Source of the DNA: Armatimonadota bacterium
Lineage (GTDB): Bacteria; Sysuimicrobiota; Sysuimicrobiia; Sysuimicrobiales; Humicultoraceae
Direction of reading: 5' to 3'
DNA length: 64,000 nucleotides
NCBI GenBank assembly: GCA_037443565.1
Contig: JBBIOB010000006.1
Span: forward strand, 4,300-68,299
Part shown: piece after piece, positions 1 through 52,657 of the stretch
Layout: each line of letters starts with the position of its first letter
Position numbering within the stretch: the first letter of the stretch is position 1
Notes under the pieces: generated by a model
Told to the model about the DNA's origin: nothing
What the model saw: only the letters and a program-made list of their open reading frames with translations
The model's database searches: none
Made by a program: the position numbers and the translations under genes

Positions 1-783
1 GATGGCATCCGCGCAGTGGGTCACCAGGACGGTGTACTCCTCGAAGCGCGGGGACTCGATCTCAGCGCCAACCGTCGCGATGCTCACCGCGGCGACGGCA
101 GCCCCGGTGTGGTCATAGACCGGCGCTGCGGCGCAGCGGATGAGTTCCTCGTGCTCTCCCGAGTCGACGGCATAGCCCCGCTGTCGCACGAGGGCCAGGT
201 GGTCCCGCAGGTCGTCCGCCGAGGTGATCGTTCTGGCCGTATACCGGCGCAGTCCTCGTCGCTGGAGGGCCTGATCCAGCAGGCCGTAGGGCAAGGCCGC
301 CAGCAGCGCCTTGCCGAGCCCGGTGCAGTGGGCGGGCGCGCGCCGGCCCACCTGGGAGTACATGCGGACCCTGCGGGTGCTCTCGATCTTGTCGATGTAG
401 ACGACCTCTCCCTCGTCGAGGATCGCCAGGTGCACCGTCTCCCCGCACGCCCGGTGCATCTCCTCCAGGTGGGGACGCGCGATCTGCCGCAGTTCCGCGC
501 TGTGGACGACAAGGCTCCCCAGCTCAAACAGGTGAAGCCCAAGGCGATATCGGCCGCTGATGGTGTCCTGGGTGACGAACCCCTCCCGCTCCAGCGTCAC
601 CAGCAGGCGGTGCACAGTGCTCTTGTGGAGCCCCAGGGTGCGCGCGAGGTCGGTAACCCCCAACTCGGGGGAGGACGCAGAGAATGCCTTGAGGATTCCG
701 ACGGCCCGCTCCACGGCACGGATACCGTGGGATCCGGCGGCCTGTCTGTCGTTGTCCCGTTGTATGAGACGCCGTCTCCGCAT
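1..783 (-). CDS. IclR-family transcriptional regulator; the C-terminus runs off the window start
   Basis: Minus-strand translation reads MRRRRLIQRDNDRQAAGSHGIRAVERAVGILKAFS...LGVTDLARTLGLHKSTVHRLL (HTH), then an effector-binding domain (VHLAILDEGEVVYIDKIES...). The listed plus-strand ORF 16..789 is its antisense shadow. Divergent from the sugar ABC operon. Confidence 0.7.
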   Translation of the reverse strand, partial: MRRRRLIQRDNDRQAAGSHGIRAVERAVGILKAFSASSPELGVTDLARTLGLHKSTVHRLLVTLEREGFVTQDTISGRYRLGLHLFELGSLVVHSAELRQIARPHLEEMHRACGETVHLAILDEGEVVYIDKIESTRRVRMYSQVGRRAPAHCTGLGKALLAALPYGLLDQALQRRGLRRYTARTITSADDLRDHLALVRQRGYAVDSGEHEELIRCAAAPVYDHTGAAVAAVSIATVGAEIESPRFEEYTVLVTHCADAI

Positions 784-959: not shown

Positions 960-2531
960 ATGGGTACCGAGCTGGACGGCGTGAAGTGGACGCGTCGCGA
1001 GGTACTGAGGACAACCGTCGCTTTCAGCGGGGCGGCTCTGGCGTCGTCCGTACTGACGGGCTGCCGACGCGAAGCCGCGCAGGCGCCCACACCGGCACCG
1101 GTGACCGTCGCGAAGGTCGCCGGCGCCACCCCTGAGGAGCGCGCGCTCAACGGTATCAAGGCGCTCAAGGACGCCGGCAAGCTCAAGGCCGGCGAGACGT
1201 TCACCATCATGCACCACTCCGGTCAACGCAACAACATCGTTCCCGCCCTGGAGGAGTGGAACAAGCTCACCGGGCTGAAGTTCGTGAGCGCGGAGATCGG
1301 CGCCGAGCCGGACATCTACACCAAGTCGCTCCACGAGGCCGTGGCTCGCACCGGGAACTTCGACATCTTCTTGACGTTCGTGAACTGGATCGCGGACATG
1401 GCCGAGGCCGGTCTGATCGTGGACCTGACCGACTACTTCGCCAGGTATGACCCCGAAATCGACCATGGGCCGAATGCCTACGTCCCACCGCTGGACCGGT
1501 TCACAACCACCTACAAGGGGCGCCGGTTCGCGGTGGGTGCCGACGACGACGCCTTCAGTTGCTTCTACCGCAAGGACCTGATGGCAGACCCCAACGAGAA
1601 GAAGCGGTTTGAGGACAAGTACGGCCGGCCGCTGGAGGTCCCCAAGACCTGGAAGGAGTTCGACGAGTGGATCGCGTTTTTCGACCGGCCGGACAAAGGC
1701 CTGCGGGGCGCGCACATGTACGCCGAGCGCTACTTCGCCTACACGGCCTGGGCGGCGCGGTTCGTGTCCAGGGGGGGCGCATACTTCAACGACAACATGG
1801 ACCCGATGATCGCCTCGCCCGAAGGCGTCGGCGCGCTGGAGGAGCAGGTGAAGCTGGTTCGCAACCACATGCTCCCCGAAGCCGTCACCGGCGACTGGAC
1901 GGTGGCCTATTCCCGCTTCCCGGCGGGCGCGGTGTTCTTCGCGTGGGCCTGGCCGTCGCTGGGCAAATGGGCCGAGGACCCGAAGACCTCGAAGATCGTC
2001 GGCAAGGTGGGGGCCATGGAGGTCCCGGGCACCATGCACAACGGCGATCTCATCCGGGCGGTTCCCCATGTGGTGGGCTGGAGCTTCAGCGTCTCCCGTT
2101 ACGGCAAGAACCCAGAGGCCGCCTACTGCTTCATCCAGTGGTTCACCGGCCCGAAGACCGGCCTGGAGGCCATAGCCCGCGTGGGCACGCTGGACATCTT
2201 CCGGAAGCCGTGGTTCGAGGCCGAGGAGATGAAGAAGGCCTACGGCGCCGAGCTTCTGCCCATCCTGCTCAAGGGTACCCAGGATGCGTTCCCGGACCTC
2301 TCACTGCGAGGCGCCAACGAGTACCTGGACAAGCTCAACCTGAACCTGCAGCAGGCCTTCGCCGGGACCAAGGCCCCGGAGGCGGCCCTCAAGGACACGG
2401 AGGCCGAGTGGCAGAAGATCACCGACCGCCTCGGCCGCCTGGGACAGATCGAGGCCTGGCGCAGCGAGCGGCAGGGCTACCCGGCGCGGCTCCAGGACCT
2501 GTGGAAGAAGCTCGGGAAGTTCCCGCCCTAG
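960..2531 (+). CDS. Sugar ABC transporter substrate-binding protein (family 1, CUT1-type)
   Basis: 523 aa. RBS ggagggagga lies before the ATG. The N-terminus has a twin-arginine-like RREVLRTTVAFSGAALA signal with a Cys (possible lipoprotein). Overall composition is typical of extracellular solute-binding proteins. Confidence 0.8.
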   Translation: MGTELDGVKWTRREVLRTTVAFSGAALASSVLTGCRREAAQAPTPAPVTVAKVAGATPEERALNGIKALKDAGKLKAGETFTIMHHSGQRNNIVPALEEWNKLTGLKFVSAEIGAEPDIYTKSLHEAVARTGNFDIFLTFVNWIADMAEAGLIVDLTDYFARYDPEIDHGPNAYVPPLDRFTTTYKGRRFAVGADDDAFSCFYRKDLMADPNEKKRFEDKYGRPLEVPKTWKEFDEWIAFFDRPDKGLRGAHMYAERYFAYTAWAARFVSRGGAYFNDNMDPMIASPEGVGALEEQVKLVRNHMLPEAVTGDWTVAYSRFPAGAVFFAWAWPSLGKWAEDPKTSKIVGKVGAMEVPGTMHNGDLIRAVPHVVGWSFSVSRYGKNPEAAYCFIQWFTGPKTGLEAIARVGTLDIFRKPWFEAEEMKKAYGAELLPILLKGTQDAFPDLSLRGANEYLDKLNLNLQQAFAGTKAPEAALKDTEAEWQKITDRLGRLGQIEAWRSERQGYPARLQDLWKKLGKFPP

Positions 2532-2560: not shown

Positions 2561-3514
2561 ATGGTGTACTGGTGTAGGGAGCGCGTGGAGCGCATGGCGG
2601 GGCTGCTGGGAGGCCGGATCGCCGAAGTCGCCAACAGGGACAGCACTTTCAGGGTCATCCTGGTGGCCCCGCTGCAGCTCCTGCTGTGGTTCCTCCTCAT
2701 CGTTCCCACGCTGATCGTCCTCTACCTCAGCGTGGTGAACTGGCAGCCCATCATGGGTGTGGACTGGTGGCAGGCACCGCTGGCCTGGGTGGGCAACTAC
2801 GCCCGCGTTGTCCGCGATGTCCGGTTCTGGGAGGCCATGGCCCGCACGCTGGGCGTCGTGGTCGCCGCCGTCGGCCTGGAGTTCCTCCTGGGACTGGGAT
2901 TGGCGCTGCTGCTCAGGGGCGAGTTCCTGGGCAAGCGGTTCTTCACCTCGGTGATCCTGTATCCCATGATGCTGCCCTGGGTCGTCGTGGGGCTGGTGTT
3001 CTTCCTGCTCTTCCTTGACCGCGGGCCGGTCAACTACATCATCGGCCTGACCTTCGGCCCGGACGCGCCTTTCGACTGGTACGGGCACCCTCTCTCGGCG
3101 CTCGGGGTAATCGTGCTGGCCGACGTATGGCAGTGGACGCCGTTCATGTTCCTGATCCTGTACTCGGGGCTGGGGGCTCTCCCCAAGGAGCCCCAGGAAG
3201 CCGCCATGACCCTGGGGGCCAGCCCATGGCAGATCTTCCGGTACGTCATGCTTCCGATGCTGCGGCCCATCATCTACGTCGCGGTCGTGATCCGCGCGCT
3301 GGAAGCGTTCAAGATCTTCGATCTGGTGTTCATCATCACGCGCGGCGGCCCAGGAACCTCCACCGAGAGCATCTCGCTGTACATCTACCGGCTCAGCGCG
3401 ATCTACGGGCAGCTCTCCTACGCTGCGGCGATGGCGGTCCTGATCCTGGTCATGGTGGCAGTCCTGACCCGGTACGCCGTCAAGCCCATGGAGCAGCAGC
3501 AGGTGCCGCAGTGA
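2561..3514 (+). CDS. Sugar ABC transporter permease (MalF/UgpA-like)
   Basis: Multi-TM protein with EAA-type loop (EAAMTLGASPWQIFRYVMLPMLRP). The ATG at 2561 is the start in the correct frame; the longer listed ORF 1667..3514 is an upstream read-through. Confidence 0.8.
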   Translation: MVYWCRERVERMAGLLGGRIAEVANRDSTFRVILVAPLQLLLWFLLIVPTLIVLYLSVVNWQPIMGVDWWQAPLAWVGNYARVVRDVRFWEAMARTLGVVVAAVGLEFLLGLGLALLLRGEFLGKRFFTSVILYPMMLPWVVVGLVFFLLFLDRGPVNYIIGLTFGPDAPFDWYGHPLSALGVIVLADVWQWTPFMFLILYSGLGALPKEPQEAAMTLGASPWQIFRYVMLPMLRPIIYVAVVIRALEAFKIFDLVFIITRGGPGTSTESISLYIYRLSAIYGQLSYAAAMAVLILVMVAVLTRYAVKPMEQQQVPQ

Positions 3515-4368
3515 GGGGGCTGCTGCCGCTGGTGCGGTGGGTTGCCGCGGTTGCCGTGGCCGCCGTGGTCCTGATGCCGGTGGTCTGGGCCGTCTCGATC
3601 TCTTTCAAGCCGCCAGCCGAATGGGCCGCGCATCCGCCGCGGCTTGTTCCCGAAGAACCGACTCTGGCCAACTACCAGGTCCTGTTCCAGGTGGGCAACC
3701 CCGTCGGCGTAGTGGCAGAGATGACCCGGACCGCCGAGCCGGTGACCCGGGCGTTTATCACCAGCCTGATCGTGGCCCCCCTGGCTACTGCGGCCTCGGT
3801 GGCCATCGGCTTCTTCGCTGCGTACGCGGTCTCCCGCTACCAGGTGGGAGGGCCCATGCTGCCCTTCCTGGCGCTGACGACCCGCATGTTCCCGCCGGTG
3901 GCATTCGCGGTCCCGCTGCTCGTCTATTACCGCATGCTGGGGCTCATTGACACGCGGCTGGGCCTGGCCCTCATGTACACCGGGTTCACCGTGGCTTTCC
4001 CGCTGTGGATGATCAAGGGGTTCATTGACAGCGTGCCGCGCCACGTAGAGGAGGCGGCGATCCTGGACGGCGCCAGCCGCTGGCGGGTGCTGTTCACCAT
4101 CACCCTGCCGCTAGTCAAGGGCGGGGTGGCGGCCGCGCTGCTATTCGTGTTCATCCTGAACTGGACCGAGTTTTTGTTCGCCCTGATCTTCACCAGCCGC
4201 CACGCCATCACGCTCCCCGTCCAGGTCAGTTACTATGCCGGGGCGGTGGGACGCTTCTATGGGCCCCAGGCGGCCCTGGGCATCGTCGCCTCGCTGCCGG
4301 TCGTGATAGCTGGCTACGTGATTCAGCGGCACCTGGTGCGCGGGTTCACGTTCGGCCTGGTGAAGTAG
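3511..4368 (+). CDS. Sugar ABC transporter permease (MalG/UgpE-like)
   Basis: GTG start overlaps the previous stop (GTGA). Motif DGASRWRVLFTITLPLVKGG. About 285 aa. Confidence 0.8.
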   Translation: MRGLLPLVRWVAAVAVAAVVLMPVVWAVSISFKPPAEWAAHPPRLVPEEPTLANYQVLFQVGNPVGVVAEMTRTAEPVTRAFITSLIVAPLATAASVAIGFFAAYAVSRYQVGGPMLPFLALTTRMFPPVAFAVPLLVYYRMLGLIDTRLGLALMYTGFTVAFPLWMIKGFIDSVPRHVEEAAILDGASRWRVLFTITLPLVKGGVAAALLFVFILNWTEFLFALIFTSRHAITLPVQVSYYAGAVGRFYGPQAALGIVASLPVVIAGYVIQRHLVRGFTFGLVK

Positions 4369-4370
4369 TC

Positions 4371-5441
4371 GTGGCCACCATCGCGTTGCGGCGTCTCGTC
4401 AAGCGGTTCGGCAGCACTGTTGCCGTAGACGACGTATCACTGGACATCCCGCACGGGAAGCTGGTCTGCCTGCTGGGCCCCTCCGGGTGCGGTAAGACGA
4501 CGACGCTGCGGATGATCGCCGGCCTGGAGCAGCCGACCTCCGGGGAGATCCTGTTCGACGGCGCGCCGGTGAGCAACGTCCCCCCACAGCGCCGCGGAAT
4601 CGGGATGGTCTTCCAAAACTACGCCCTGTTCACGCACATGACGACGTACGACAACCTGGCGTTTGGGCTGCGCATCCGGGGCGAGCCTCGAGAGACCGTG
4701 GACGGGGAGGTCCGCCGCATGGCGGAGGTCCTGGAGCTGACGGCGGTGCTCGACCACCCGGCCGCGCGCCTCGACCTCAGCACCATGCAGCGCGTCGCAC
4801 TGGGCCGGACGTTGATCACCAGGCCTCGGGTGCTGCTGCTGGACGAGCCGCTCAACAACATCCGGCCCGGCCTGCGAGAGATGCTCCGAGCCGAGCTGCG
4901 CCGGCTTCAGCTGGACCTCAACCAGACCGCCGTCTACGTGACCCACGATCAGGAGGAGGCGCTCTCGCTGGCCGACCAGGTCATCATCATGGCCCGGGGG
5001 AAGGTGGAGCAGATCGGGTCGCCCGACGGAGTATATCGCCGTCCCCGCAACCGGTTCGTCGCGGCTTTCGTGGGTTCTCCGACCATGAACTTCCTCCCCT
5101 GCGAGGTGACCAGCCGGGACGGGGAGCCGCACCTGGCGGGCCCCGGGTTCGTCATCCCGGCCGGACGGCGCCCGGACCTGGGACCGCGCGGGCGGCTGAT
5201 CGTCCTGGGGATCAGGCCGGAGGGGGTCCGCCTGGGCGAAGGTCCGGTTTCCGCCGTCGTCATGCTCATCCAGCCGGCCGGCGCCGACCAGATCATCGAA
5301 TTGGCCGTGGGCGACCACCGGCTGCGTGCCCTGATCCGGCCCAGCCTCAGGCTAACCATCGGACAGCAGGTGGCACTGGACTTCCCGTCGGACGAACTGC
5401 ACCTCTTCGACGCCGCCACCGGTGAGGCGCTGGATGGCTGA
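4371..5441 (+). CDS. ABC transporter ATP-binding protein (MalK-like), degenerate signature and D-loop
   Basis: Walker A GPSGCGKTT; Q-loop MVFQ; Walker B LLLDEP; H-loop VTHDQ. The signature reads LSTMQ-RVA instead of LSGGQRQRVA, and the D-loop is NNIRP. A MalK-type C-terminal regulatory domain is present. Confidence 0.8.
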   Translation: MATIALRRLVKRFGSTVAVDDVSLDIPHGKLVCLLGPSGCGKTTTLRMIAGLEQPTSGEILFDGAPVSNVPPQRRGIGMVFQNYALFTHMTTYDNLAFGLRIRGEPRETVDGEVRRMAEVLELTAVLDHPAARLDLSTMQRVALGRTLITRPRVLLLDEPLNNIRPGLREMLRAELRRLQLDLNQTAVYVTHDQEEALSLADQVIIMARGKVEQIGSPDGVYRRPRNRFVAAFVGSPTMNFLPCEVTSRDGEPHLAGPGFVIPAGRRPDLGPRGRLIVLGIRPEGVRLGEGPVSAVVMLIQPAGADQIIELAVGDHRLRALIRPSLRLTIGQQVALDFPSDELHLFDAATGEALDG

Positions 5442-6510
5442 GATCGCGCTGCGCGACGTCGCCAAGCGCTACGGTCGGATCGAGGCGGTACGCGGCCTCT
5501 CGTTCGACGTCCGCTCGGGCGAGCTGGTCTGCCTGCTCGGTCCGCCTGGGATGGGCAAGACGACTACGCTGCGGCTGATCGCAGGGCTCGAGCGGCCCGA
5601 TCGCGGCGAGATCCTGATCGACGGGCAGTCCGTCGCCGGGCAGGAACCCGGCCAGCGGGACATCGCCATGGTCTTCGAGGACCTAGCCCTCTACCCGCAC
5701 ATGGAGGGCTTCGACAACATCGCGCACCCGCTGCGCCTGCGCCGTATGCCGATCGAGGAGATCCGGCGAAAGGTCGATCACGTGGCCGACCTCCTGGGAA
5801 TCCCACACCTGCTGGAGCGCCTGCCCCACACCTTCAGCGGCGGGGAGCAGCAGCGGGTCGCCATCGCCCGGGCGATCGTGCGCGAACCCAAGATCCTGCT
5901 GCTGGACCAGCCTCTGTCGAACCTGGACGCCAAGGTGCGCGAGGTCATGATCGGCGAGCTACGGCACCTCCAGCAGCGCACGCGCCAGACTACCATCTAT
6001 GCGACCCACGACTACGAGGAAGCCATGGCGTTGGGCGACCGCATCCTTGTGCTGCGGGAGGGGACGGCCGACCAGATCGGGACGCCGGAGGAGGTCTACG
6101 CCCGGCCGGCGACCACTCTGGCCGCCACCATCACGGGCAGCCCGCCCATGAACCTGATCCCCTGCCGCTTCAGCGGCGGCCTTGCCATGGCCGACGGGTT
6201 CACCATCTCGGCCCCCGGCGCCGAGGGAGAGGGGTTTCTGGGCATCCGCCCGGAGGAGGTGCGCTTGGGCGAGGGGATCCCCGCCGTCGTAGACCTGGTC
6301 CAGCCCCTGGGCCGCAAGAAGATCGTGGAGGTCACCGTCGGGCGCGTGCGGCTCAAGGTCACCGCCGGCCCCGAGTTCGCCGGCCAGCGCGGGGACACGA
6401 CGGCGGTGGCATTCGGCCCCTCCATCGTGCGCATCTACGGTGCGGACGGCCGCCTCTCGGCCACGAGGGCGACCGGACCGCCCTTCCAGCGAGGGGGAAC
6501 GATGGGCTGA
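5422..6510 (+). CDS. ABC transporter ATP-binding protein (MalK-like), Walker-B E-to-Q and Q-loop Q-to-E
   Basis: Walker A GPPGMGKTT; signature FSGGEQQRVAIARA; Walker B ILLLDQP, so the catalytic Glu is replaced by Gln; Q-loop MVFED; D-loop SNLDA; H-loop ATHDY. Overlaps the upstream ATPase gene by 20 nt. Confidence 0.8.
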   Translation: MRRWMAEIALRDVAKRYGRIEAVRGLSFDVRSGELVCLLGPPGMGKTTTLRLIAGLERPDRGEILIDGQSVAGQEPGQRDIAMVFEDLALYPHMEGFDNIAHPLRLRRMPIEEIRRKVDHVADLLGIPHLLERLPHTFSGGEQQRVAIARAIVREPKILLLDQPLSNLDAKVREVMIGELRHLQQRTRQTTIYATHDYEEAMALGDRILVLREGTADQIGTPEEVYARPATTLAATITGSPPMNLIPCRFSGGLAMADGFTISAPGAEGEGFLGIRPEEVRLGEGIPAVVDLVQPLGRKKIVEVTVGRVRLKVTAGPEFAGQRGDTTAVAFGPSIVRIYGADGRLSATRATGPPFQRGGTMG

Positions 6511-6553: not shown

Positions 6554-7471
6554 TTACCTGAGCTTTGATACGTCCACCTGGAAGATGATCGGGAACAACG
6601 TCGACCATCGCAGCCAGCGCTTCGATCCGGCTTCAGACACGGACCAGAGGCGGCCTTCGTCGTCGAACGTGACGTCCTCGATGCCGATGACCACCTCATA
6701 GCGCGCGACGACAGCGCCAGACTTGGGGTCAACCTTCTGTAAGACACCACGCCTGCTGTTGCTGAAGGTCAACCAGAGGTTGCCCTGCCGGTCCACCGTC
6801 GCCCCCTGGCCGTTGACGCCGATGGCGAGAACAGACAGGGCCCGATCTTCCCTGACCGTCCCCCTCCCGTTGAACTCGTCAAACAACTTCAGGCTCACGC
6901 GGTGGAGCCTAGCCTTGCTCGCCTCGTCCTCCGACGAGCCGATCCAGAGATCCGTGCCGTCGAAGGCGGCAAAGGAACCCTTGAGATCACCGCCCAGGCG
7001 TATCGTGCTTTGCAGCGCGTTCTGAGTGTGGCCGTCGTGGAAGGCCCTCTGCACGTCGATCTTGTACAGCCGACGCGTGTCCGATACGACGAGTGAACCG
7101 TCCCTGAGGTACGCCAGTCCGCCGGCGTGCCCGCAGTCGGCCGGCATGTCGAACTGCGCGGTGTAGCGCCCGGAAGTTGGGTCCACCCTGAACACCCGGC
7201 ATGGGCCCGTTGACACATTGGGATCCGTGCTCCGGTACGCTGACATGACGATAGCGCCCTCCACGTACGTGAGACCCTGGGGCACGTAGCCCTCGTCGAG
7301 CCCCGGCGCCCAGATCCGCTTCACGATGGCCTGCTCGTTGGGCACTGACCCCGGACCGGATGCCAGGTAACCCGGTCTTGTGCCCAGGACCTCTGCGGCC
7401 AGGGCGACGAACACCGCAACGAACGTGAGCGACAGAGTGCCCGACAGCGGCAGCCGGGTTCTCGCGTTCAT
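6554..7471 (-). CDS. Secreted or membrane-anchored hypothetical protein, possibly a beta-propeller (glutaminyl-cyclase-like?)
   Basis: 305 aa. N-terminal signal/TM segment (LSLTFVAVFVALAA). GC3-rich. The family assignment is weak. Confidence 0.45.
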   Translation of the reverse strand: MNARTRLPLSGTLSLTFVAVFVALAAEVLGTRPGYLASGPGSVPNEQAIVKRIWAPGLDEGYVPQGLTYVEGAIVMSAYRSTDPNVSTGPCRVFRVDPTSGRYTAQFDMPADCGHAGGLAYLRDGSLVVSDTRRLYKIDVQRAFHDGHTQNALQSTIRLGGDLKGSFAAFDGTDLWIGSSEDEASKARLHRVSLKLFDEFNGRGTVREDRALSVLAIGVNGQGATVDRQGNLWLTFSNSRRGVLQKVDPKSGAVVARYEVVIGIEDVTFDDEGRLWSVSEAGSKRWLRWSTLFPIIFQVDVSKLR

Positions 7472-7746: not shown

Positions 7747-7823
7747 TGGAGCGGGCGATGGGATTTGAACCCACGACCCTCGGCTTGGGAAGCCGATGCT
7801 CTACCGCTGAGCTACACCCGCTC
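7747..7823 (-). tRNA. tRNA-Gly (anticodon CCC)
   Basis: Reverse complement GAGCGGGTGTAGCTCAGCGGTAGAGCATCGGCTTCCCAAGCCGAGGGTCGTGGGTTCAAATCCCATCGCCCGCTCCA has a 7-bp acceptor stem, D- and T-arms and anticodon loop TTCCCAA. Confidence 0.85.
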
Positions 7824-10177: not shown

Positions 10178-11035
10178 GTGCCCGTGACGCTGGAGTCGCT
10201 CGCCGCACGGCTCGGGCGGCGCACCGGCGCGGTTCTGCGGCTGGTCGAGCGCATGCACGCCGACGGCCTGGTCGAGACCGGTCCTTCGGGCCTGCGGCTC
10301 ACGGCGACCGGCAACGACTGGGCGCTGCAGGTCGTCCGCGCCCACCGCCTGTGGGAGCGCTATCTCTCCGATCAGGCGGGCTGGCCTCTGGCCGACCTTC
10401 ACGCCGAGGCGGACCGCCGCGAGCACTCCCGTCCACCCGGCGAACTGGATGCCCTGGACGCCGGGCTGGGACACCCCCCGCACGACCCGCACGGCGATCC
10501 CATCCCGACGGCATCGGGCGATCTCGAGCGCAAGCCCAGCGTGTCGCTGACACGGTGGCCCGTCGGCGTGCCCGGTGAGATCGCGCACATCGAGGACGAA
10601 CCGGCCGCGGCCTACGAGCAGATCCTGGCGATGGGCCTGCGGCCCGGTGCGCAGATCCGCGTCATCGAATCTACACCCTCGCGGCTGCTGGCCGAGGTGG
10701 ACCTGGCGCAGCACAGCCTGGCGCCGATCGTGGCCGCAGGCGTAGCGGTCAGGCCGGCGGCACACATCCCCACACCCGTAGGCGTGCCCTTGACGGCGCT
10801 CCGCGTCGGCGATCGGGCCACGGTCAGCGCGCTGGACGCCTCCTGCCAGGGTCTGACGCGGCGACGCTTGCTCGACCTTGGGGTCACGCCGGGCGTGACG
10901 ATCGAGGCCGCCCTGCCAAACCCGTTCGGCGACCCGCTCGCCTACCGGGTACGCGGCACGCTGATCGCGCTCCGGAGCGAACAGGCGCAACACGTCATCG
11001 TCGACCCGACCACGATCACGCGCGGAGCGCACTGA
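10178..11035 (+). CDS. DtxR/IdeR-family metal-dependent regulator fused to two FeoA (SH3-like) domains
   Basis: The HTH (VTLESLAARLGRRTGAVLRLVERMHADGLVE) is followed by metal-site residues HAEADRREHS...HGDPIP, then two FeoA-like repeats (VGVPGEIAHIEDEP...IRVIE and LRVGDRATVSALDA...). The same frame is open back to 10130 and encodes helix-1-like IEDALKHVHDANHRG, but with no canonical start there. Confidence 0.7.
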   Translation: MPVTLESLAARLGRRTGAVLRLVERMHADGLVETGPSGLRLTATGNDWALQVVRAHRLWERYLSDQAGWPLADLHAEADRREHSRPPGELDALDAGLGHPPHDPHGDPIPTASGDLERKPSVSLTRWPVGVPGEIAHIEDEPAAAYEQILAMGLRPGAQIRVIESTPSRLLAEVDLAQHSLAPIVAAGVAVRPAAHIPTPVGVPLTALRVGDRATVSALDASCQGLTRRRLLDLGVTPGVTIEAALPNPFGDPLAYRVRGTLIALRSEQAQHVIVDPTTITRGAH

Positions 11036-12879
11036 TGGATCCCGGAGCCCCCCGGACGGCAGCACTGGGGATCCGAACGCCGAACCCGGACTACGTCGTG
11101 GCGCTGGCCGGCAACCCCAACACCGGCAAGAGCACGGTCTTCAACGCGTTGACCGGCCTGCGGCAGCACACCGGCAACTGGCCGGGCAAGACGGTGGCGC
11201 GCGCCGAAGGGGTCCTCGAGCACCGTGGCCGCAAGTACGCGCTGGTCGACCTGCCCGGGACCTACTCCCTGCTCTCGGCGTCGGTCGACGAAGAGATCGC
11301 CCGGGACTTCATCCTGTTCGGCCGGCCCGACTGCACGATCGTCACCCGTCCACGCCGTCTCGAGGTGGGCGCACCGCTGGCCCGGGCCGCGGACGAACTG
11401 GCTGTGATGCTTGACCGGGCGTACCCAGGCCTGCCAAGCGCCAGGTGGATCGGCATGCGGCTGCTCGACGGCGACCAACGCGTGCGTGAGGCGGTGCGCG
11501 GCGGCGCCGACATCCTGGCACGGGCCGACGCCCTGCGCCGCACCCTCGACGGCGCCTTCCGCGATCGGCTCGTCGAGGCAATCTACGCCGAGGCCCAGCG
11601 TATCGCGGCCCGCGCGGTGCGCCAGACTGGACGCGCTCGGGTCGACGCCGACCACTGGGTCGACCGGGTCCTGACCTCGCGCATCTTCGGCCTGCCGATC
11701 ATGCTGGCCACACTCGCGCTGGTCTTCTGGATCACCGTCAGCCTGGCCAACGTCCCCTCCGAGCTGCTGGCGGGGTTCCTCTTCTGGATCGAGGAACAGG
11801 GCGCGGCCGCGTTCGGCCGCCTGGGCGTACCGGCGTGGATTGCCGGCCTGATCTGGCACGGGACGTACCGCGGCCTGGCGTGGGTGGTGTCGGTCATGCT
11901 GCCGCCGATGGCCATCTTCTTCCCGCTGTTCACGATCCTCGAGGACCTGGGCTACCTGCCACGCGTGGCGTTCAACCTGGATCGGCTGTTCCGCCGCGCC
12001 GGCGCGCACGGGAAGCAGGCGCTCACGATGAGCATGGGGTTCGGATGCAACGCCGCGGGCGTGATCGCGACCCGCATCATCGACAGTCCGCGCGAGCGGC
12101 TGATCGCGATCCTCACCAACACGTTCGTGCCGTGCAACGGGCGCTTCCCGACGTTGATCCTGTTGGCCTCGGTCTTCGTCGCCGCCGCCCTGCCGGCACA
12201 CCTCGCCGCCCTCGCCGCCGCCGGGTCGGTCGTACTGGTCGTGCTCATCGGCGTGATCGTCACGCTGGTCGCGTCGTGGGGCATGTCGCGGACGGTCCTG
12301 CGCGGCGAGCCGTCGGCGTTCACGCTCGAGCTGCCGCCGTTCCGCCGGCCCGACGTCATCCGCATCCTCTACACATCGCTGATCGACCGCACGCTGTTCG
12401 TGCTGATGCGGGCGGTCAAGGTGGCCGTCCCGGCCGGGACGATCATCTGGATCCTCGGCAACGTGCCCCTCGGCGGCCGGAGTCTGAGCGCGCTGGCCGC
12501 GGGCCTGCTCGATCCGCTGGGGCGCGCGGTCGGGCTCGACGGCGTGATCATGGCCTTCGTGATCGCGATCCCGGCAAACGAGATCGTCCTGCCGACGGTC
12601 CTGATGGTCTACGCGGGCGCGGGCATGATGATCGGCCCGGAGGGATTCGACAACTTGAGAGATCTGCTCGTCGGCGACCACGGCTGGACGCTGCTGACCG
12701 CGGTGAACCTGATGCTGTTCAGCCTGCTGCACAACCCCTGCGGCACGACGATCTGGACGATCTGGGCCGAGACCCGCAGCCCGCGGTGGACGGCGCTCGG
12801 CGCGCTGGTGCCGCTCGGAGTCGCCTTCGCCGTCACCTTCGCCACGGCGACGCTTGCCCGGATCTTGGGCTGGATCTAG
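11035..12879 (+). CDS. feoB: Ferrous iron transporter FeoB
   Basis: G1 GNPNTGKST and G3 DLPGTYS, then a GDI-like linker and polytopic membrane domain (DRVLTSRIFGLPIMLATL...). The ATG overlaps the regulator's stop (ATGA). Confidence 0.85.
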   Translation: MDPGAPRTAALGIRTPNPDYVVALAGNPNTGKSTVFNALTGLRQHTGNWPGKTVARAEGVLEHRGRKYALVDLPGTYSLLSASVDEEIARDFILFGRPDCTIVTRPRRLEVGAPLARAADELAVMLDRAYPGLPSARWIGMRLLDGDQRVREAVRGGADILARADALRRTLDGAFRDRLVEAIYAEAQRIAARAVRQTGRARVDADHWVDRVLTSRIFGLPIMLATLALVFWITVSLANVPSELLAGFLFWIEEQGAAAFGRLGVPAWIAGLIWHGTYRGLAWVVSVMLPPMAIFFPLFTILEDLGYLPRVAFNLDRLFRRAGAHGKQALTMSMGFGCNAAGVIATRIIDSPRERLIAILTNTFVPCNGRFPTLILLASVFVAAALPAHLAALAAAGSVVLVVLIGVIVTLVASWGMSRTVLRGEPSAFTLELPPFRRPDVIRILYTSLIDRTLFVLMRAVKVAVPAGTIIWILGNVPLGGRSLSALAAGLLDPLGRAVGLDGVIMAFVIAIPANEIVLPTVLMVYAGAGMMIGPEGFDNLRDLLVGDHGWTLLTAVNLMLFSLLHNPCGTTIWTIWAETRSPRWTALGALVPLGVAFAVTFATATLARILGWI

Positions 12880-14013
12880 TCAGCGCGCGGCACGGAGCCG
12901 CGCGCTCCTGATCTCTTCAACCACAAGAGGGTCCCGCTCGGATTCGTATGCCTGGCGCAGCGCGGCCATCGCCGCCGCACCGCCGATCTTCCCCAGCGCC
13001 CAGGCCGCGTGCCCGCGGACCACAGGATCGACAGGATCGTGGAGCGCGACGATCAGCTCGGGGACGGCGCGCGCATCGCCCAAGTTGCCCAGCGCCACGG
13101 CCACGTTGCGGCGCAGGCCGCCGCGCCCGGCGCGCTTGACCGCGCTGCGACGGAACCGGCGGCGGTAGTCGGCCTCCGAGAGGTTCAACAGCGGCAGCAG
13201 GCGCGGCCGCGTCCCGGTCTCGGGCCGCGGATGGAACTCCGCGTGCGCCGTGAGCGTGACGCGGCGGTTGAACGGGCAGGCCTGCTGGCAGAGGTCGCAG
13301 CCGAAGATCATGTCCTCGAGCGTGGGCCGCACCTCGCGCGGGATCCATCCCCGGTGCTCGATGGTCCAGTACGAGATGCACCGGCGCGCGTCGACGACAC
13401 CGGGCTCCACGATCGCGCCGGTGGGACAGGCCTCGGTGCCGTGATAGCAGCTCTCGCACAGGCCGCAGTCGCCCCCCGCCGGCGGATCAGGCGCGAGCGC
13501 CAGGTCGGTCAGGATCTCGCCCAGCACCACCCAGGTGCCGAACGCCCTCGTGATCAGGCAGGTATGGCGGCCACACCAGCCCAGTCCGGCGCGCTGAGCA
13601 ATAGCGCGGTCAAGCAGCGGGCCGGTGTCCACGTAGCAGCGCGCCAGGTGCGCGCCCTGCGCGACCAGGAACGCACCGAGCGCGCGCAGGCGCTCCTCCA
13701 TGACCAGGTGGTAGTCGTCGCCCCACGCGTAGCGGCTGATCCGGCCCCGCAGCTCGCCGTCGGGGGGATCGGGCTCGCCCGCGCAGTAGTTCATGGCCAC
13801 GGCCACGATGGCGCGCGCGCCGGCGCGGACGCGCCGCGGGTCGCCGACGCGGTCACGGTGCGCTTCCATGTACGCCATGCCCGCGTGCATCCCGGCCTCC
13901 AGCCAGCGGTGGTACGCGGCCTCGGCTTCGGGCAACGGCTCGGCGGTGGTGATCCCCACCAAGTCGAAGCCGACCTCGCGCGCCTTCGACTTGACAGCTT
14001 CCTCGAGCGTCAC
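12880..14013 (-). CDS. queG: Epoxyqueuosine reductase
   Basis: 4Fe-4S Cys clusters (CGLCESC, CDLCQQACP), a cobalamin-binding region and C-terminal HEAT-like repeats (AAWALGKIG). GTG start. Confidence 0.8.
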   Translation of the reverse strand: MTLEEAVKSKAREVGFDLVGITTAEPLPEAEAAYHRWLEAGMHAGMAYMEAHRDRVGDPRRVRAGARAIVAVAMNYCAGEPDPPDGELRGRISRYAWGDDYHLVMEERLRALGAFLVAQGAHLARCYVDTGPLLDRAIAQRAGLGWCGRHTCLITRAFGTWVVLGEILTDLALAPDPPAGGDCGLCESCYHGTEACPTGAIVEPGVVDARRCISYWTIEHRGWIPREVRPTLEDMIFGCDLCQQACPFNRRVTLTAHAEFHPRPETGTRPRLLPLLNLSEADYRRRFRRSAVKRAGRGGLRRNVAVALGNLGDARAVPELIVALHDPVDPVVRGHAAWALGKIGGAAAMAALRQAYESERDPLVVEEIRSARLRAAR

Positions 14014-46985: not shown

Positions 46986-47780
46986 GTGTCGGCGATGACA
47001 TCAACCAGGATCATCCTGAGCGCGGTCACCAAGGTTTTCCAGACGCGCGCCCGACCGGTCGTCGCCCTCGAGAACGTCTCGCTGGAGGTGGCCGGGGGTG
47101 AGTTCGTCTGCGTGGTCGGTCCGTCGGGTTGCGGCAAGTCCACGCTACTGCGGATCCTCGCGGGGCTCGTGCCGCCGACCTCGGGACAGGTCGCCTTCAA
47201 TGGAGGCACCCGCGACAAGCCGCTGCACAGCCTGGTCTTTCAGGAGTACGCGATCTTCCCCTGGAAGACCGTCTTCGAGAACGTCGCTTTCGGCCTCGAG
47301 ATGCGCGGAGTCCCGCGGCCGGACTGCGCGGCCGTCGCGCGCGCCTGGATCGAGCGGGTCGGGCTGCGCGACTTCGCCGACGCCTATCCGCGACAACTCT
47401 CGGGCGGCATGCGCCAGCGCGTGGGGATCGCCCGTGCGTTTGCCAACGACCCCGAGGTCCTCCTCATGGACGAACCGATGGGGGCGCTCGACGCGCAGAC
47501 GCGCCTGCTCCTGATGGACGAACTGCTGCGCCTGTGGGAAACCGACCGCAAGACCGTGGTCTACATCACACATGATATCGACGAAGCGCTGCTGCTCGGC
47601 GACCGCGTGGTCCTGATGACCGCGCGGCCGGGCCGGCCCAAAGCGACCTACAAGGTCCCATTTCCGCGGCCGCGGGGCATCGAGGTCATGGCCGCCCCCG
47701 AGTTCGCCAGGCTGTCGTACGCGATCTGGGAAGCGCTGAGGGATGAGGCGATCGCCGCGATGGGGACGCGGGCGTCATGA
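46986..47780 (+). CDS. ABC transporter ATP-binding protein (NitT/TauT family)
   Basis: VVGPSGCGKSTLLRILAGL; LSGGMRQRVGIARA; LLMDEP. Confidence 0.8.
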   Translation: MSAMTSTRIILSAVTKVFQTRARPVVALENVSLEVAGGEFVCVVGPSGCGKSTLLRILAGLVPPTSGQVAFNGGTRDKPLHSLVFQEYAIFPWKTVFENVAFGLEMRGVPRPDCAAVARAWIERVGLRDFADAYPRQLSGGMRQRVGIARAFANDPEVLLMDEPMGALDAQTRLLLMDELLRLWETDRKTVVYITHDIDEALLLGDRVVLMTARPGRPKATYKVPFPRPRGIEVMAAPEFARLSYAIWEALRDEAIAAMGTRAS

Positions 47781-48574
47781 CGGCGAACGCCGACCGCCGC
47801 GATGCCTGGCTGGCCGTCGGCGCGCCGCTCCTGCTCGTCGCGCTGTGGGAAAGCGCGGTGCACGTGGGGATTCTGGACGCCCGGTTCTTCCCGCCCCCGT
47901 CACTCGTGCTGGTCACGCTCACCCGTCTGGTTGCCGATGGCACGATCGCTCATCACGTGCTCGTGACCATCGCGCGCGTGATCGCCGGATTCGCAATCGG
48001 CGCCGGAGTTGGGCTGGCCGCCGGCCTGCTCCTGGGCACGATCCCGACGCTGCGGGCGGCGCTCGAGCCGACGATCTCGGCGCTCTACGTCATCCCGAAG
48101 GTCGCGATCCTCCCCCTGGTGATGCTGATCTTCGGCCTGGGCGAGGCGTCGAAGGTGGCGATCGTCGCCATCAGCACCTTCTTCATTGCGGTGATCAACA
48201 CGACCGCGGCCGTGGTGGGCATCGAGCCCACGTACCTCGAGGCGGGCCGGGCGTTCGGGGCCCGCCGGCTGCGGATGTTCAGACACGTCATCCTGCCCGG
48301 CGCGCTTCCGGTCATCGTCACCGGCCTGCGGCTGGCGCTGGGGACGGCGCTCATCGTCGTCATCGCCGCGGAATTCGTGGCGACGCAGGAGGGCATCGGC
48401 TTCTTCATCTGGCACGCCTGGAACACGCTGCGGCCCGAGGAGATGTTTGCCGGCTTCATTGTGATCGCGCTGTTAGGTATGCTGTCGTATGCGGCCATTC
48501 GGTGGGCCGGCCGCCGGATGATGCCGTGGCTCGAGGACGACCGTCCGCGCGGGGGGAGAATCGACCATGGGTAG
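47777..48574 (+). CDS. ABC transporter permease (NitT/TauT family)
   Basis: Six TMs and an EAA-like loop; overlaps neighbours. Confidence 0.8.
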   Translation: MTANADRRDAWLAVGAPLLLVALWESAVHVGILDARFFPPPSLVLVTLTRLVADGTIAHHVLVTIARVIAGFAIGAGVGLAAGLLLGTIPTLRAALEPTISALYVIPKVAILPLVMLIFGLGEASKVAIVAISTFFIAVINTTAAVVGIEPTYLEAGRAFGARRLRMFRHVILPGALPVIVTGLRLALGTALIVVIAAEFVATQEGIGFFIWHAWNTLRPEEMFAGFIVIALLGMLSYAAIRWAGRRMMPWLEDDRPRGGRIDHG

Positions 48575-49583
48575 ACGCGTTCGCCTCTGGACTCTGCTGC
48601 CGATCGCCGCCGTGGCGCTCGCATCGCTGGTGGTCTCGACGCCGGCTGAGGGGCAGCGCGCCGAGCGCGTCGTGGTCGCGCATGTCCCGCTCATCAACTT
48701 CGCCACGCTCTATGTGGCGATGGAGCGCGGGTACTTCCGCGAACAGGGCATCGACATCGAGCTCCAGCGGGTGGCCTCGGGCACCGAGGCCCTGGTCTTC
48801 CTGGCCCAGGACCGGTTGGATGTGGGCGCGGTCGGCATCTCGGCGTCGACCTTTAACGCGTTCAACCGGAAGCTCGACCTGCGCATCGTCGCGTCGACCT
48901 CGGTCTGGGGCCAGCGCCACGGCACCCGCATCCTCACCCGGCTCGACCTGTTCGACTCCGGCGAAGTCCGCTCGGTCCGGGACCTGCGCGGCCGCCGGGT
49001 CGCGGTCGCCGGCGGAGCCGGATCCACCGGCCACTACCTGTTCTTGATTGGGGCCAGACGCGGGGGCATCGGCCCGCGCGACTTCGAGCTGGTCAGCCTG
49101 CCGAACCCCGACCACGGACCGGCGCTGCGGGCCGGCCGGGTGGATGCCTCCCTCACGGGGTCGCCGTTCTCGTCCGCGGCGCTGGCGCAGTTCATGGCGC
49201 GGCCGCTGCTCGAGAACTTCGCGCCGGGCAACGCCTCCACGGTATTTGCGTACTCCGGCGGCTTCATGCGTACGCGGCCCGAGGTCGCCACGCGGTTTCT
49301 CATGGCGCTCATGCAGGCCGCCCGGGCGATGCAGGGGCCACAGTTCCTCGCGCCGGACAACGTCGCGGCCTACAAGAAGTACACTGGCGTACGCGACGAG
49401 GTGCTGCTCAACGAGCCGCCGCTGCTCTACGACCGTGACATGCGGATCGTCACAGGCACGATCGTCGACATGGAGAAGACCTTCCGCGAGGCCGGGCTGG
49501 CGGACTACGCGACGCCCGTTCCGCTGGAGGCGATGGTCAACCGACGGTTCCAGCAGGAGGCACTGAAGCGGTTGGGACCGTAA
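48567..49583 (+). CDS. ABC transporter substrate-binding protein (NMT1/SsuA-like)
   Basis: Signal peptide; NMT1/THI5-like composition. Confidence 0.65.
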   Translation: MGRRVRLWTLLPIAAVALASLVVSTPAEGQRAERVVVAHVPLINFATLYVAMERGYFREQGIDIELQRVASGTEALVFLAQDRLDVGAVGISASTFNAFNRKLDLRIVASTSVWGQRHGTRILTRLDLFDSGEVRSVRDLRGRRVAVAGGAGSTGHYLFLIGARRGGIGPRDFELVSLPNPDHGPALRAGRVDASLTGSPFSSAALAQFMARPLLENFAPGNASTVFAYSGGFMRTRPEVATRFLMALMQAARAMQGPQFLAPDNVAAYKKYTGVRDEVLLNEPPLLYDRDMRIVTGTIVDMEKTFREAGLADYATPVPLEAMVNRRFQQEALKRLGP

Positions 49584-50914: not shown

Positions 50915-51807
50915 CGCCGAAAGCGGAACTGCCAGGAACCGCCCGGGGGGTCCGAATCGAGTGGACCCCCTACCTGCTCGTGTTGCCCACGCTGGTGTTC
51001 CTCGGCGTGTTCTTCGTCTACCCCATGGCGCAGGCGCTCTGGCTCGCCGTCACGGTACCGGAAACCGGCGGGCTGACGCTGGGGCACTTCCAGCGGATGA
51101 GCGACGACCTGTACTTCAGGTCGGCGATCCGCTACACGATCATCATCACGGCCATTGCGGTTCCGCTCCAGGTGGCCCTGGGGCTGGCGATCGCGCTGCT
51201 GGTCAACTCTCGGTTTTCGGGCCACTCGTACTTCCTGTACCTGTGCGCTGTCCCGCTGGGGATCTCGGACCTCGCCGCTGGGCTCATCTGGCTGTCCATC
51301 TTCACCGAGCGGGGCTACCTCAATGCGTTTCTCCAGGCGGCGGGGCTGGTGGCGCAGCCCATCACCTTTCTGACCTTCGAGCGTCCCGAGTGGCTGGTGG
51401 GCGCGATCATCCTGACCGAGGTCTGGCGCGCCACGGCCATCGTGATGATCATCCTCCTGGCCGGATTGCAGTTGATCCCCAGGGACTACCTGGAAACCGC
51501 CAGCGTGTTCGGCGCCAACCGGTGGCAGACGCTCCGGCACGTGCTCCTGCCGCTCCTGCGGCCGAGCCTCCAGACCGCGCTCATTATCCGCACGATCCTG
51601 GCGTTTCAGGTCTTCGCCACGGTCATCACGCTCGCGGGACGCCAGGTGCCTGTCCTGGCTGGAGAGGCCTACTTCTGGTACTCGCTCTACCGCAGCCCGA
51701 ACGTCGCCAGCGCATACGCGGTGCTGATCCTATTCCTCTCCGGTGCCATCACGTGGATCTACCTGCGGGTGCTCCGCCAGCGGGAGGCCGAGGTGGCGCC
51801 CACATGA
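50869..51807 (+). CDS. Sugar ABC permease (MalF/UgpA-like)
   Basis: Six TMs; EAA-type loop (ETASVFGANRWQTLRHVLLPLLRP). Confidence 0.8.
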   Translation: MSAAGSGNQAVQAGLTPKAELPGTARGVRIEWTPYLLVLPTLVFLGVFFVYPMAQALWLAVTVPETGGLTLGHFQRMSDDLYFRSAIRYTIIITAIAVPLQVALGLAIALLVNSRFSGHSYFLYLCAVPLGISDLAAGLIWLSIFTERGYLNAFLQAAGLVAQPITFLTFERPEWLVGAIILTEVWRATAIVMIILLAGLQLIPRDYLETASVFGANRWQTLRHVLLPLLRPSLQTALIIRTILAFQVFATVITLAGRQVPVLAGEAYFWYSLYRSPNVASAYAVLILFLSGAITWIYLRVLRQREAEVAPT

Positions 51808-51831
51808 GAAAGCCGTGCGGGGGACGCTGAC

Positions 51832-52641: not shown

Positions 52642-52657
52642 GCCTTCGGAGGCGCGA

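Follow-up and report, generated by a model that had tools for sequence, protein, structure and literature searches.

Carbohydrate importers of the CUT1 class such as MalFGK2, LpqY-SugABC and AlgM1M2SS are type I ABC systems that combine a family-1 solute-binding protein, two EAA-loop permeases of the MalF/MalG type and a MalK-type nucleotide-binding domain (NBD) with an OB/TOBE region, the NBD being present as a homodimer. MalK-type importers are textbook symmetric two-site motors. Each ATP site of an ABC transporter draws on both NBDs: one contributes its Walker A and Walker B motifs and its A-, Q- and H-loops, the other its signature motif, and the Walker B glutamate is essential (PMC7756269). 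Reviews treat the asymmetry between a consensus and a degenerate site as a feature of exporters (PMC3971661), in which the Walker B glutamate of the degenerate site is replaced, often together with changes in the H-loop, and the signature of the partner NBD deviates (PMC7756269, PMC3971661). Among importers, sequence analysis has assigned one degenerate ATP site to RbsA and NupO (CUT2 and nucleoside uptake), which are classed as type II (PMC11466899), and in the glycerol ABC system GlpSTPQV the two ATPases are encoded by different genes, glpS and glpT (PMC11223650). No description of a MalK-type heterodimer with a degenerate site was found in the literature searched, which covered few subscription journals, and asymmetric ATP sites in type I importers are apparently undescribed so far.

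Results

The 64,000-nucleotide stretch of DNA analysed here (the window) contains a CUT1-type importer operon on the plus strand that ends in two collinear MalK-type ATPase genes, A1 followed by A2. The genes of this locus are as follows.

1..783, minus strand: IclR-family regulator, divergent and cut by the window edge; identified by sequence reading (MRRRRLIQ, an HTH and an IclR_C-like region) and by synteny
960..2531, plus strand: solute-binding protein, family 1 (CUT1 type), 523 aa; Pfam SBP_bac_1 and SBP_bac_8
2561..3514, plus strand: permease 1, MalF-type role, with the EAA loop QEAAMTLGAS; Pfam BPD_transp_1
3511..4368, plus strand: permease 2, MalG/SugB-type, with the EAA loop EEAAILDGAS; Pfam BPD_transp_1
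4371..5441, plus strand: ATPase A1, MalK-type NBD with OB/TOBE regulatory domain (ABC_tran, OB_MalK and TOBE_2); catalytic motifs intact, signature and D-loop degenerate
5434..6510, plus strand: ATPase A2, MalK-type NBD with diverged OB/TOBE domain (ABC_tran, OB_MalK and TOBE_2); signature and D-loop intact, changes in Walker B and Q-loop

Orthologous operons in relatives are likewise flanked by IclR genes. The solute-binding protein matched SBP_bac_1 at 5.9e-20 in Pfam and no NCBIfam model, and its nearest solved relatives are the sugar-binding proteins 5iai, MalE3 and GacH. The best solved relatives of permease 2 are SugB and MalG, and the EAA-x3-G coupling loop is readable in the translations of both permeases. 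In relatives, the operon adjoins genes for KDPG aldolase, a PfkB kinase and an SDR, which together with a syntenic FAA-hydrolase gene point to a carbohydrate of the sugar acid or deoxy-sugar type as the putative substrate. The locus thus has the family-1 solute-binding protein, the two MalF/MalG-type permeases and the MalK-type NBD with OB/TOBE region of a CUT1 system, but it departs from the CUT1 norm of one ATPase gene giving a homodimer with two consensus sites, having instead two genes with complementary non-consensus motifs. A sequence-only reading of this DNA had held that paired ATPases are not the norm for CUT1 importers, and this agrees with most of the MalK-like loci that were fetched, which contain a single canonical ATPase, and with the CUT1 operon at 49607-53755, which is canonical in having a single ATPase and provides a control within the same window. 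A scan of genome contigs with A1, taken as a baseline and dominated by unspecific matches to Walker and Q-loop patterns, returned mainly ordinary single-ATPase MalK/PotA loci (36-52% identity) and also pairs from Mesorhizobium.

A1 and A2 are separate open reading frames with a stop codon between them; they share 43% identity, and the Walker A motif ends in GKTT in both. The MalK-type C-terminal domains that the sequence-only reading had attributed to both proteins were recovered with Pfam, at 36.9 bits (OB_MalK) and 37.5 bits (TOBE_2) in A1 and at 28.5 bits (OB_MalK) and 21 bits (TOBE_2) in A2, the last score lying at the cut-off. The best curated NCBIfam model is NF008653 (UgpC subfamily), with 348.7 bits for A1 and 338.4 bits for A2; both scores lie below the curated cut-off of 432 bits, and neither protein falls within any curated NCBIfam model. 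Orthologues of A2 start with MAEI and the gene caller concurs with a start at ATG 5434. With this likely start the two genes overlap by 8 nt (ATGGCTGA), and not by the 20 nt proposed earlier. The window copies of both genes are free of frameshifts and stop codons. Sequencing error was rejected because the same sequence recurs in an independent Logan assembly, and pseudogene decay and misalignment of the signature were rejected as well.

Motifs were placed by HMMER alignment to the solved MalK-type ATPases 1g29, 2d62 and 4tqu. The alignments with 1g29 and 2d62 run the whole length of both proteins, there are no local gaps at any motif, and motif residue numbers are identical in A1 and A2 when A2 is numbered from ATG 5434; these numbers match those of E. 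coli MalK (K42, Q82, S135, E159 and H192). A1 has an intact Walker A (GPSGCGKTT, aa 36-44), Q-loop (VFQN, Gln82) and H-loop (THD, His192), and A2 has the Walker A motif GPPGMGKTT, the H-loop THD and the D-loop SNLDA. The remaining motifs are given below by position.

4770..4784, plus strand: A1 signature position, LDLST (aa 134-138) instead of LSGGQ, from the ungapped HMMER alignment to 1g29 and 2d62; part of site II
4833..4850, plus strand: A1 Walker B, LLLDEP, with the catalytic Glu159; site I
4854..4868, plus strand: A1 D-loop, NNIRP (aa 162-166) instead of SNLDA, Asp165 replaced by Arg, from the HMMER alignment
5677..5679, plus strand: A2 Q-loop residue 82, Glu for Gln (VFED), from the HMMER alignment; site II
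5833..5847, plus strand: A2 signature, FSGGE, from the HMMER alignment; part of the consensus site I
5908..5910, plus strand: A2 Walker B residue 159, Gln for the catalytic Glu (LLLDQP; the position of MalK E159); site II

The alignment bears out most of what had been proposed for these motifs, namely the intact Walker A, Q-loop, Walker B (LLLDEP) and H-loop of A1, its D-loop NNIRP for SNLDA, and the near-canonical signature and D-loop of A2 with its Walker B LLLDQP and Q-loop Glu. The A1 signature had been described as LSTMQ-RVA with a deletion; its degeneracy stands, but the deletion does not, the alignment giving an ungapped replacement of LSGGQ by LDLST. Re-examined in this way, the substitutions were confirmed, and a canonical LSGGQ in A1 and a DE in A2 are both absent. 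The proposed division into one complete site I and one degenerate site II also holds under the standard composite-site definition (PMC7756269), since all of the non-consensus residues map to a single composite site formed by the A1 signature with the Walker B and Q-loop of A2. The D-loop sits in the middle of the dimer interface and is not strictly part of one site. Gln159 of A2 corresponds in nature to the E159Q exchange that was engineered into MalK to give a trapping mutant.

The replacement motifs are conserved. Among the 119 full-length proteins within A1's best 120 database matches, none has LSGGQ, and the signature position reads LDLS[ATS], LSLSA or LSVND except in four proteins with the single-residue variants VDLST, LDLGT, IDLSA and LGLSA. 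All 119 keep DEP, and GPSGCGKT, the Q-loop Gln and THD are likewise kept throughout. The D-loop is NN[IFM]RP in 89 of the 92 clade-A proteins (defined below) among A1's best matches, and its Arg and its Pro are each found in 88 of 90 proteins with an overall identity of ~49%, which argues for selection on the replacement motifs rather than decay. In A2, all 21 orthologues keep the signature residues S, G, G and E and have Glu or Asp at the Q-loop position, and the Walker B Gln is present in 19 of them.

Alignment of 384 MalK-like proteins revealed that the two kinds of change avoid each other. A non-canonical signature occurs in 150 proteins, all of which keep DEP and THD and 149 of which keep the Q-loop Gln, and a non-Glu Walker B occurs in 19 proteins, all of which keep xSGGE. 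The two were never combined in one protein (0/384), and judged by these counts the exclusivity is more than chance. A1-type proteins (signature lost, catalytic motifs intact) and A2-type proteins (the reverse pattern) each constitute a conserved clade that spans phyla; in a neighbour-joining tree, rough in that it uses BLOSUM distances of the NBD only and has no support values, all A1-types form one clade and all A2-types another, with matching subclades. The damage to site II differs between lineages yet stays on the site II side: Walker B E to Q in the window clade, Walker B E to D in Mesorhizobium (L001 and L006), H-loop H to P in L088 and L089, H-loop H to G in P0133, and replacement of the first Walker A Gly by Ala in 5 of the 21 A2 orthologues. 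The asymmetric MalK-type importers predicted from these motifs are a large conserved family, of which the window case is one member and not a singular event.

We consider it likely that the operon specifies a carbohydrate importer of the CUT1 type that depends on a binding protein and has as its motor an obligate A1-A2 heterodimer with a hydrolytic site I and a non-hydrolytic site II. This heterodimer of MalK-like subunits, which we infer from the motif pattern, would replace the MalK homodimer; an A1 homodimer would lack the signature, and an A2 homodimer the catalytic base, in both sites, so that only the A1-A2 pairing would yield one full site. Site I, consisting of the Walker A, Q-loop, Glu159 and His192 of A1 and the FSGGE of A2, would be complete and would hydrolyse ATP. 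Site II, consisting of the Walker A, Glu82, Gln159 and His192 of A2 and the LDLST of A1, with the Arg-bearing A1 D-loop close by, would not. The case for this putatively dead site rests mainly on A2 Gln159 and the lost A1 signature, and the exchange of the Q-loop Gln for Glu is probably not inactivating alone, since both subunits of a further tandem pair, L003, carry it (one of them with MSSGQ). Because A2 retains the Lys of Walker A, the aromatic residue of the A-loop, the Asp of Walker B and the His of the H-loop, site II is expected to keep Mg-ATP bound and would serve as a stable hinge or latch that joins the NBDs. In each transport cycle, site I would open and close once, and one ATP would thus be spent.

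An unlikely alternative is that site II holds no nucleotide, leaving a heterodimer with a single ATP site in which A1 Asp135 and Arg165 and A2 Glu82 and Gln159 would form a permanent protein-protein latch that replaces the ATP sandwich. The Ser and the two Gly residues through which a signature contacts ATP are missing from that of A1, and an Asp has appeared; being so far from consensus, with Asp where the Ser that contacts the γ-phosphate sits, LDLST may leave ATP unclamped at site II. The first Gly of Walker A is also altered, to Ala, in 5 of the 21 A2 orthologues. In clade A, moreover, the change of the A1 D-loop Asp to Arg co-occurs with the change of the A2 Q-loop Gln to Glu or Asp, and clade B has SNLDA together with the Q-loop Gln; this co-occurrence, however, would amount to approximately one evolutionary event and is weak as covariation. 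In A2, strong conservation extends to the Lys and Thr of Walker A, the Tyr of the A-loop, the Asp of Walker B and, in most cases, the His of the H-loop, which would be hard to explain without a bound nucleotide.

A broader and quite unlikely reading is that site II is a re-engineered interface of this importer family, in which A1 Asp135/Arg165 and A2 Glu82/Gln159 would act as a nucleotide-independent latch or as an ATP-locked, non-exchanging site. If true, a motor that is two-stroke in MalK would spend a single ATP per cycle here. Taken to its extreme, this reading would make the Q-loop Glu and the trans Arg an alternative catalytic arrangement, one not known among ABC ATPases. That site II is catalytic through altered chemistry, with Glu82 and Gln159 swapped, the Q-loop Glu as general base and A1 Arg165 in place of the signature contacts, is very unlikely. 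A2 does show the E/Q exchange, the A1 D-loop Arg is conserved, and Glu82 occurs together with DEP in L082, P0135 and P0140, showing that within the family the Q-loop Glu is older than the Gln of Walker B. Other lineages, however, break site II without any such swap (H-loop H to P, Walker B E to D), and their differing changes fit a loss of hydrolysis and not re-engineering. In addition, signature mutations abolish the ATPase activity of MalK, HisP and CFTR.

The predicted heterodimer agrees with the arrangement of the genes. The same paired degenerate ATPases, sought in relatives as the sequence-only reading had suggested, were present at all 12 A1-type loci examined (the window locus, L081; L082, L083, L084, L085, L086, L087, L088, L089, L001 and L006; and the P0012 locus), which are not a random sample. 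In each of the 12, the A2-type gene lies directly downstream of the A1-type gene, overlapping or abutting it, and the two are translationally coupled. For ten A1/A2 match pairs the longest contig is equal in size for both members, which suggests that the members of each pair lie on the same contig. A tblastn search against plasmids identified an annotated cultured example of the pair on a plasmid of Jannaschia sp. M317, the remaining matches being generic UgpC. That A1 and A2 are not partners, with each homodimerising or serving another transporter in the manner of the shared, unlinked MalK-like ATPases of some bacteria (MsiK-type), or with one of them a decaying duplicate, is most improbable: both do have complete domain sets, but either homodimer would contain two defective sites, the genes are adjacent and coupled in 12/12 loci, both lineages are conserved across phyla together with their replacement motifs, and the window copies carry no frameshift or stop codon.

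Discussion

In its binding protein, permeases and NBD architecture the locus resembles MalFGK2, LpqY-SugABC and AlgM1M2SS, and it differs from their MalK-type homodimer in having two NBD genes, one without the signature and one without the catalytic Glu. The combination of one active and one degenerate site had been called well known in heterodimeric exporters, as indeed it is (PMC7756269, PMC3971661). TM287/288, TmrAB, TAP1/2, CFTR and MRP1 resemble the A1/A2 pair in that a consensus and a degenerate site result from complementary changes in two NBDs. These exporters, however, have the type IV fold with fused TMD-NBD half-transporters, whereas here the NBDs are separate and belong to a type I importer with BPD_transp_1 permeases and a solute-binding protein. 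They also differ in the D-loop, the Asp of which is replaced by Arg in A1, and the LDLST of A1 is presumably more radical than the signature variants of exporter degenerate sites. In TAP and MRP1, restoring a second active site impairs transport. RbsA and NupO are, like this locus, importers with one degenerate ATP site; unlike it, their NBDs are fused and the second Walker A has no Lys, whereas the MalK-type subunits are separate here and both keep the Walker A Lys.

If the proposed motor is correct, a single hydrolytic site can suffice for type I import, which bears on the question of one versus two ATP per substrate. Importers and exporters would then have reached the same asymmetry independently, hinting at a general advantage, for which cheaper cycles, a permanently tethered NBD dimer and better coupling are candidates. 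For mechanistic and structural work, the family would also supply naturally occurring equivalents of the E159Q trapping mutant. In annotation, such pairs are now labelled merely 'ABC transporter ATP-binding protein' or UgpC/MalK-like, and neither A1 nor A2 should be presumed functional when found alone.

The GlpSTPQV system, to which a KEGG module is assigned, resembles the locus by its description as a carbohydrate-type ABC system with two ATPase genes. It differs in that no glycerol genes (glpK, glpD) lie near the window operon, and no statement on an asymmetric pairing of GlpS and GlpT was found in the literature searched. When L003 was used as an approximate GlpS/GlpT anchor, tblastn against plasmids gave generic UgpC matches only. 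The L003 pair is possibly related to GlpS/GlpT, and its motif pattern differs from that of A1 and A2 in that both subunits have the Q-loop Glu and one has MSSGQ.

Operon organization and motif states of the tandem ATPases

A compact operon on the + strand of the window encodes a solute-binding protein, two permeases and two ABC ATPases (A1 and A2), in that order.

1–783 (−), IclR-type regulator, upstream of the operon and cut by the window edge
960–2531 (+), family-1 solute-binding protein
2561–3514 (+), permease 1, BPD_transp_1, EAA loop QEAAMTLGAS
3511–4368 (+), permease 2, BPD_transp_1, EAA loop EEAAILDGAS
4371–5441 (+), ATPase A1
5434–6510 (+), ATPase A2

Because permease 2 most closely resembles SugB and MalG and the binding protein is closest to sugar-binding proteins, the system belongs to the CUT1-type (type I) importers. 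Of the curated models, that of the UgpC subfamily fits both ATPases best, with scores of 349 bits (A1) and 338 bits (A2) against a cut-off of 432, and neither protein is claimed by a curated NCBIfam family. Convergent with the operon is an ORF of 305 aa (6554–7471, −) that has a hydrophobic stretch at its N-terminus and no Pfam match.

HMMER alignment to the solved MalK-type proteins T. litoralis MalK (1g29), P. horikoshii 2d62 and AlgS (4tqu) placed A1 and A2 end to end, without gaps in the motif regions, and bore out the motif states described in the sequence-only reading. A1 has intact GPSGCGKTT, Q-loop Gln82, Walker B LLLDEP (Glu159) and His192, whereas its signature position reads LDLST and its D-loop NNIRP, compared with LSGGQ and SNLDA in MalK. 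A2, which is 43% identical to A1, has an intact signature (FSGGE) and D-loop (SNLDA) and carries an altered Walker B, LLLDQP (Gln159), and Q-loop Glu82. The A1 signature, previously read as a deletion (LSTMQ-RVA), is an ungapped replacement of LSGGQ by LDLST. The A2 start is most likely ATG 5434, in agreement with the gene caller and with the N-terminal MAEI.. of the orthologues; the overlap with A1 is thus 8 nt (ATGGCTGA, preceded by GGTGAGG) and not 20 nt as first proposed. With this start, all motifs fall at equal residue numbers in A1 and A2, and these agree with E. coli MalK numbering.

A family of paired degenerate ATPases

Among the best 120 database matches to A1, the 119 full-length relatives range in identity from 67% to about 46%; none has LSGGQ, and GPSGCGKT, DEP, the Q-loop Gln and THD are kept in all. 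Clade A combines the signatures LDLS[ATS] or LSLSA with the D-loop NN[IF]RP, clade B combines LSVND with SNLDA, and the four remaining proteins are single-residue variants. When representatives clustered at 50% identity were searched exhaustively, 145 of the best 150 were new; 29 of these have further non-canonical signatures, among them LSLSE, LNAGQ, LTVDQ and LRLDE, again all with DEP. The nearest 21 relatives of A2 (87–48% identity) all carry Q-loop Glu or Asp and an invariant xSGGE, 19 of them with Gln where Walker B normally has its catalytic residue; below 48% identity the matches change abruptly to fully canonical MalK-like proteins. Judged by these sequences, the A1/A2 case is a family and not an accident. 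Cultured bacteria with RefSeq genomes (Jannaschia, Mesorhizobium) also have members, which bear generic names.

A search of related genomes for paired degenerate ATPases found an A2-type gene directly downstream of the A1-type gene, overlapping it or at most a few bases away, at every A1-type locus examined. These comprised clade A loci (the window and its Logan twin L081; L082, L084, L085, L086 and the P0012 locus), clade B and relatives (L083; L087, a Jannaschia sp. M317 plasmid; L001 and L006 of Mesorhizobium) and the more distant L088 and L089. Equal longest-contig sizes suggest that each of ten further A1/A2 match pairs also shares a contig. In a rough NJ tree of the NBDs, the signature-less proteins form one clade and the A2-type partners another, with matching subclades, and this topology suggests an old duplication followed by co-diversification of the two types.

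Two irregular members were observed. P0002, a single predicted protein of 617 aa on a 33980-bp ENA metagenome contig, contains an A1-type NBD of clade B and an A2-type NBD, and the Arg/Pro-rich segment that links them resembles out-of-frame translation. Either a frameshift has produced it artificially or the two subunits are naturally fused. At L083 (8011–9157, 3.4-Mb MAG contig), a frameshift splits the A2-type gene, with the NBD in one frame and the TOBE domain, predicted as a separate gene of 119 aa, in another. Either the assembly is in error here or the gene is a true pseudogene.

Comparison with ordinary importers

In a genome scan of 80 generic MalK/PotA-like loci, most had one canonical ATPase and only 6 had adjacent tandem ATPase genes, both canonical in some. 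The window itself provides a useful internal control in a second CUT1-type operon, whose single MalK-like ATPase is fully canonical (LSGGQ, DEP, Q-loop Gln); the organism therefore uses both designs side by side. The earlier view that paired degenerate ATPases are not the CUT1 norm agrees with both results.

49607–53755 (+), second CUT1-type operon: 435-aa solute-binding protein, two permeases, single MalK-like ATPase
53752–55032, 426-aa ORF overlapping the end of that operon by 4 nt
46986–49583 (+), third ABC importer: ATPase (LSGGM, DEP), permease, solute-binding protein

By gene order and sequence reading, the third importer looks like a nitrate/sulfonate/taurine type. A different tandem MalK-like pair, possibly of GlpS/GlpT type, was seen in a Leptolinea MAG (L003, 4845–7095), with Q-loop Glu in both subunits (MVFENYALY, MAFETYALY), D-loops SHLDA or SHLDT and an MSSGQ signature in one subunit.

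Complementarity of the degenerate elements and predicted mechanism

Among 384 aligned MalK-like proteins, a non-canonical signature was found in 150, all of which have DEP and THD and 149 the Q-loop Gln, while all 19 proteins with a non-Glu Walker B keep their signature. No protein of the 384 is damaged both in the elements of its own site and in the element given to its partner's site, so the claim that the degenerate elements fall on one composite site holds across the set. Conservation extends to the replacement motifs: in a set of 90 clade-A proteins chosen without regard to the D-loop, with an overall identity of only about 49%, 88 have the D-loop Arg and 88 the D-loop Pro. Such a pattern is the opposite of neutral decay.

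An ABC ATP site is formed by Walker A, Walker B and the A-, Q- and H-loops of one NBD together with the partner's signature; D-loops lie at the centre of the NBD dimer interface, and hydrolysis requires the Walker B Glu, a Gln mutant locking the ATP-bound state (PMC7756269). An A1 homodimer would lack the signature in both sites, and an A2 homodimer the catalytic base in both. Because only A1–A2 pairing would yield a complete site (site I, A1 catalytic motifs with A2 FSGGE), we conclude that the motor is probably an obligate heterodimer with one hydrolytic site, the second site (site II) combining A2 Gln159 with A1 LDLST. Because A2 retains the Walker A Lys, A-loop Tyr, Walker B Asp and, in most cases, the H-loop His, we favour a site II that would bind ATP without hydrolysing it and would serve, like that of TM287/288 or TmrAB, as a stable hinge. 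The strong departure of the A1 signature from consensus, with its added Asp, makes a latch free of nucleotide a serious alternative.

The A1 D-loop Asp-to-Arg change co-occurs with the A2 Q-loop Gln-to-Glu change in clade A and not in clade B, which amounts to about one evolutionary event; speculatively, the two may form a new inter-subunit contact. Q-loop Glu alone is probably not inactivating, because both L003 subunits carry it.

Every lineage-specific change affects an element that A2 contributes to site II. Walker B Glu is replaced by Gln in the window clade (DQA in the Thermoflexus type) and by Asp (LMDDP) in Mesorhizobium (L001, 7031–8146; L006, 6974–8152), the latter being the change typical of exporter degenerate sites; these proteins have Walker A GPPTSGKT/GPPLSGKS and A1-type partners with LSVNI. 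DEP is still present in the clade B partners and L082. L088 (1578–2393) and L089 (6108–7202) retain Walker B Glu with H-loop His changed to Pro (ATPD), and P0133, a database match, has His changed to Gly, which appear to be independent routes to disabling site II. The first Gly of Walker A is Ala in 5 of 21 A2 orthologues.

Degenerate sites are described as an exporter feature (PMC3971661; PMC7756269) and are also recorded for RbsA and NupO, whose NBDs are fused (PMC11466899); two-ATPase carbohydrate systems such as GlpS/GlpT are known (PMC11223650). A full-text search of incomplete coverage found no description of a MalK-type heterodimer with a degenerate site; an earlier description is possible. 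The A1–A2 system would be the importer counterpart of asymmetric exporters, and the initial observation is confirmed with minor corrections, its interpretation supported and generalised. For questions of ATP stoichiometry, and of what degenerate sites do in importers, the family provides a natural test bed.

Genomic neighbourhood and predicted substrate

Orthologous operons neighbour genes for IclR, RraA-like and M24/creatinase-like proteins, KDPG aldolase, PfkB kinase, SDR and sometimes an FAA-family hydrolase. At L082, L084, L085, L086 and the P0012 locus, the RraA-like gene lies between IclR and the binding protein, and the M24/creatinase-like gene directly follows A2, then KDPG aldolase, PfkB and SDR. 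These neighbours suggest a substrate of sugar acid or deoxy-sugar type feeding a KDG-like route; the M24 and RraA-like neighbours have no evident place in a sugar-acid route. None of these neighbours lies downstream of the operon in the window; they may be located to the left of the window, on the far side of the divergent IclR gene, which is the arrangement at the P0012 locus. Elsewhere in the window we noted tRNA-Gly(CCC) and, from translation alone, three further ORFs.

7747–7821 (−), tRNA-Gly(CCC)
10178–12879 (+), 285-aa DtxR/FeoA-type-like regulator ORF followed directly by a FeoB-like 614-aa ORF
12880–14013 (−), QueG-like ORF after the FeoB-like ORF, on the opposite strand
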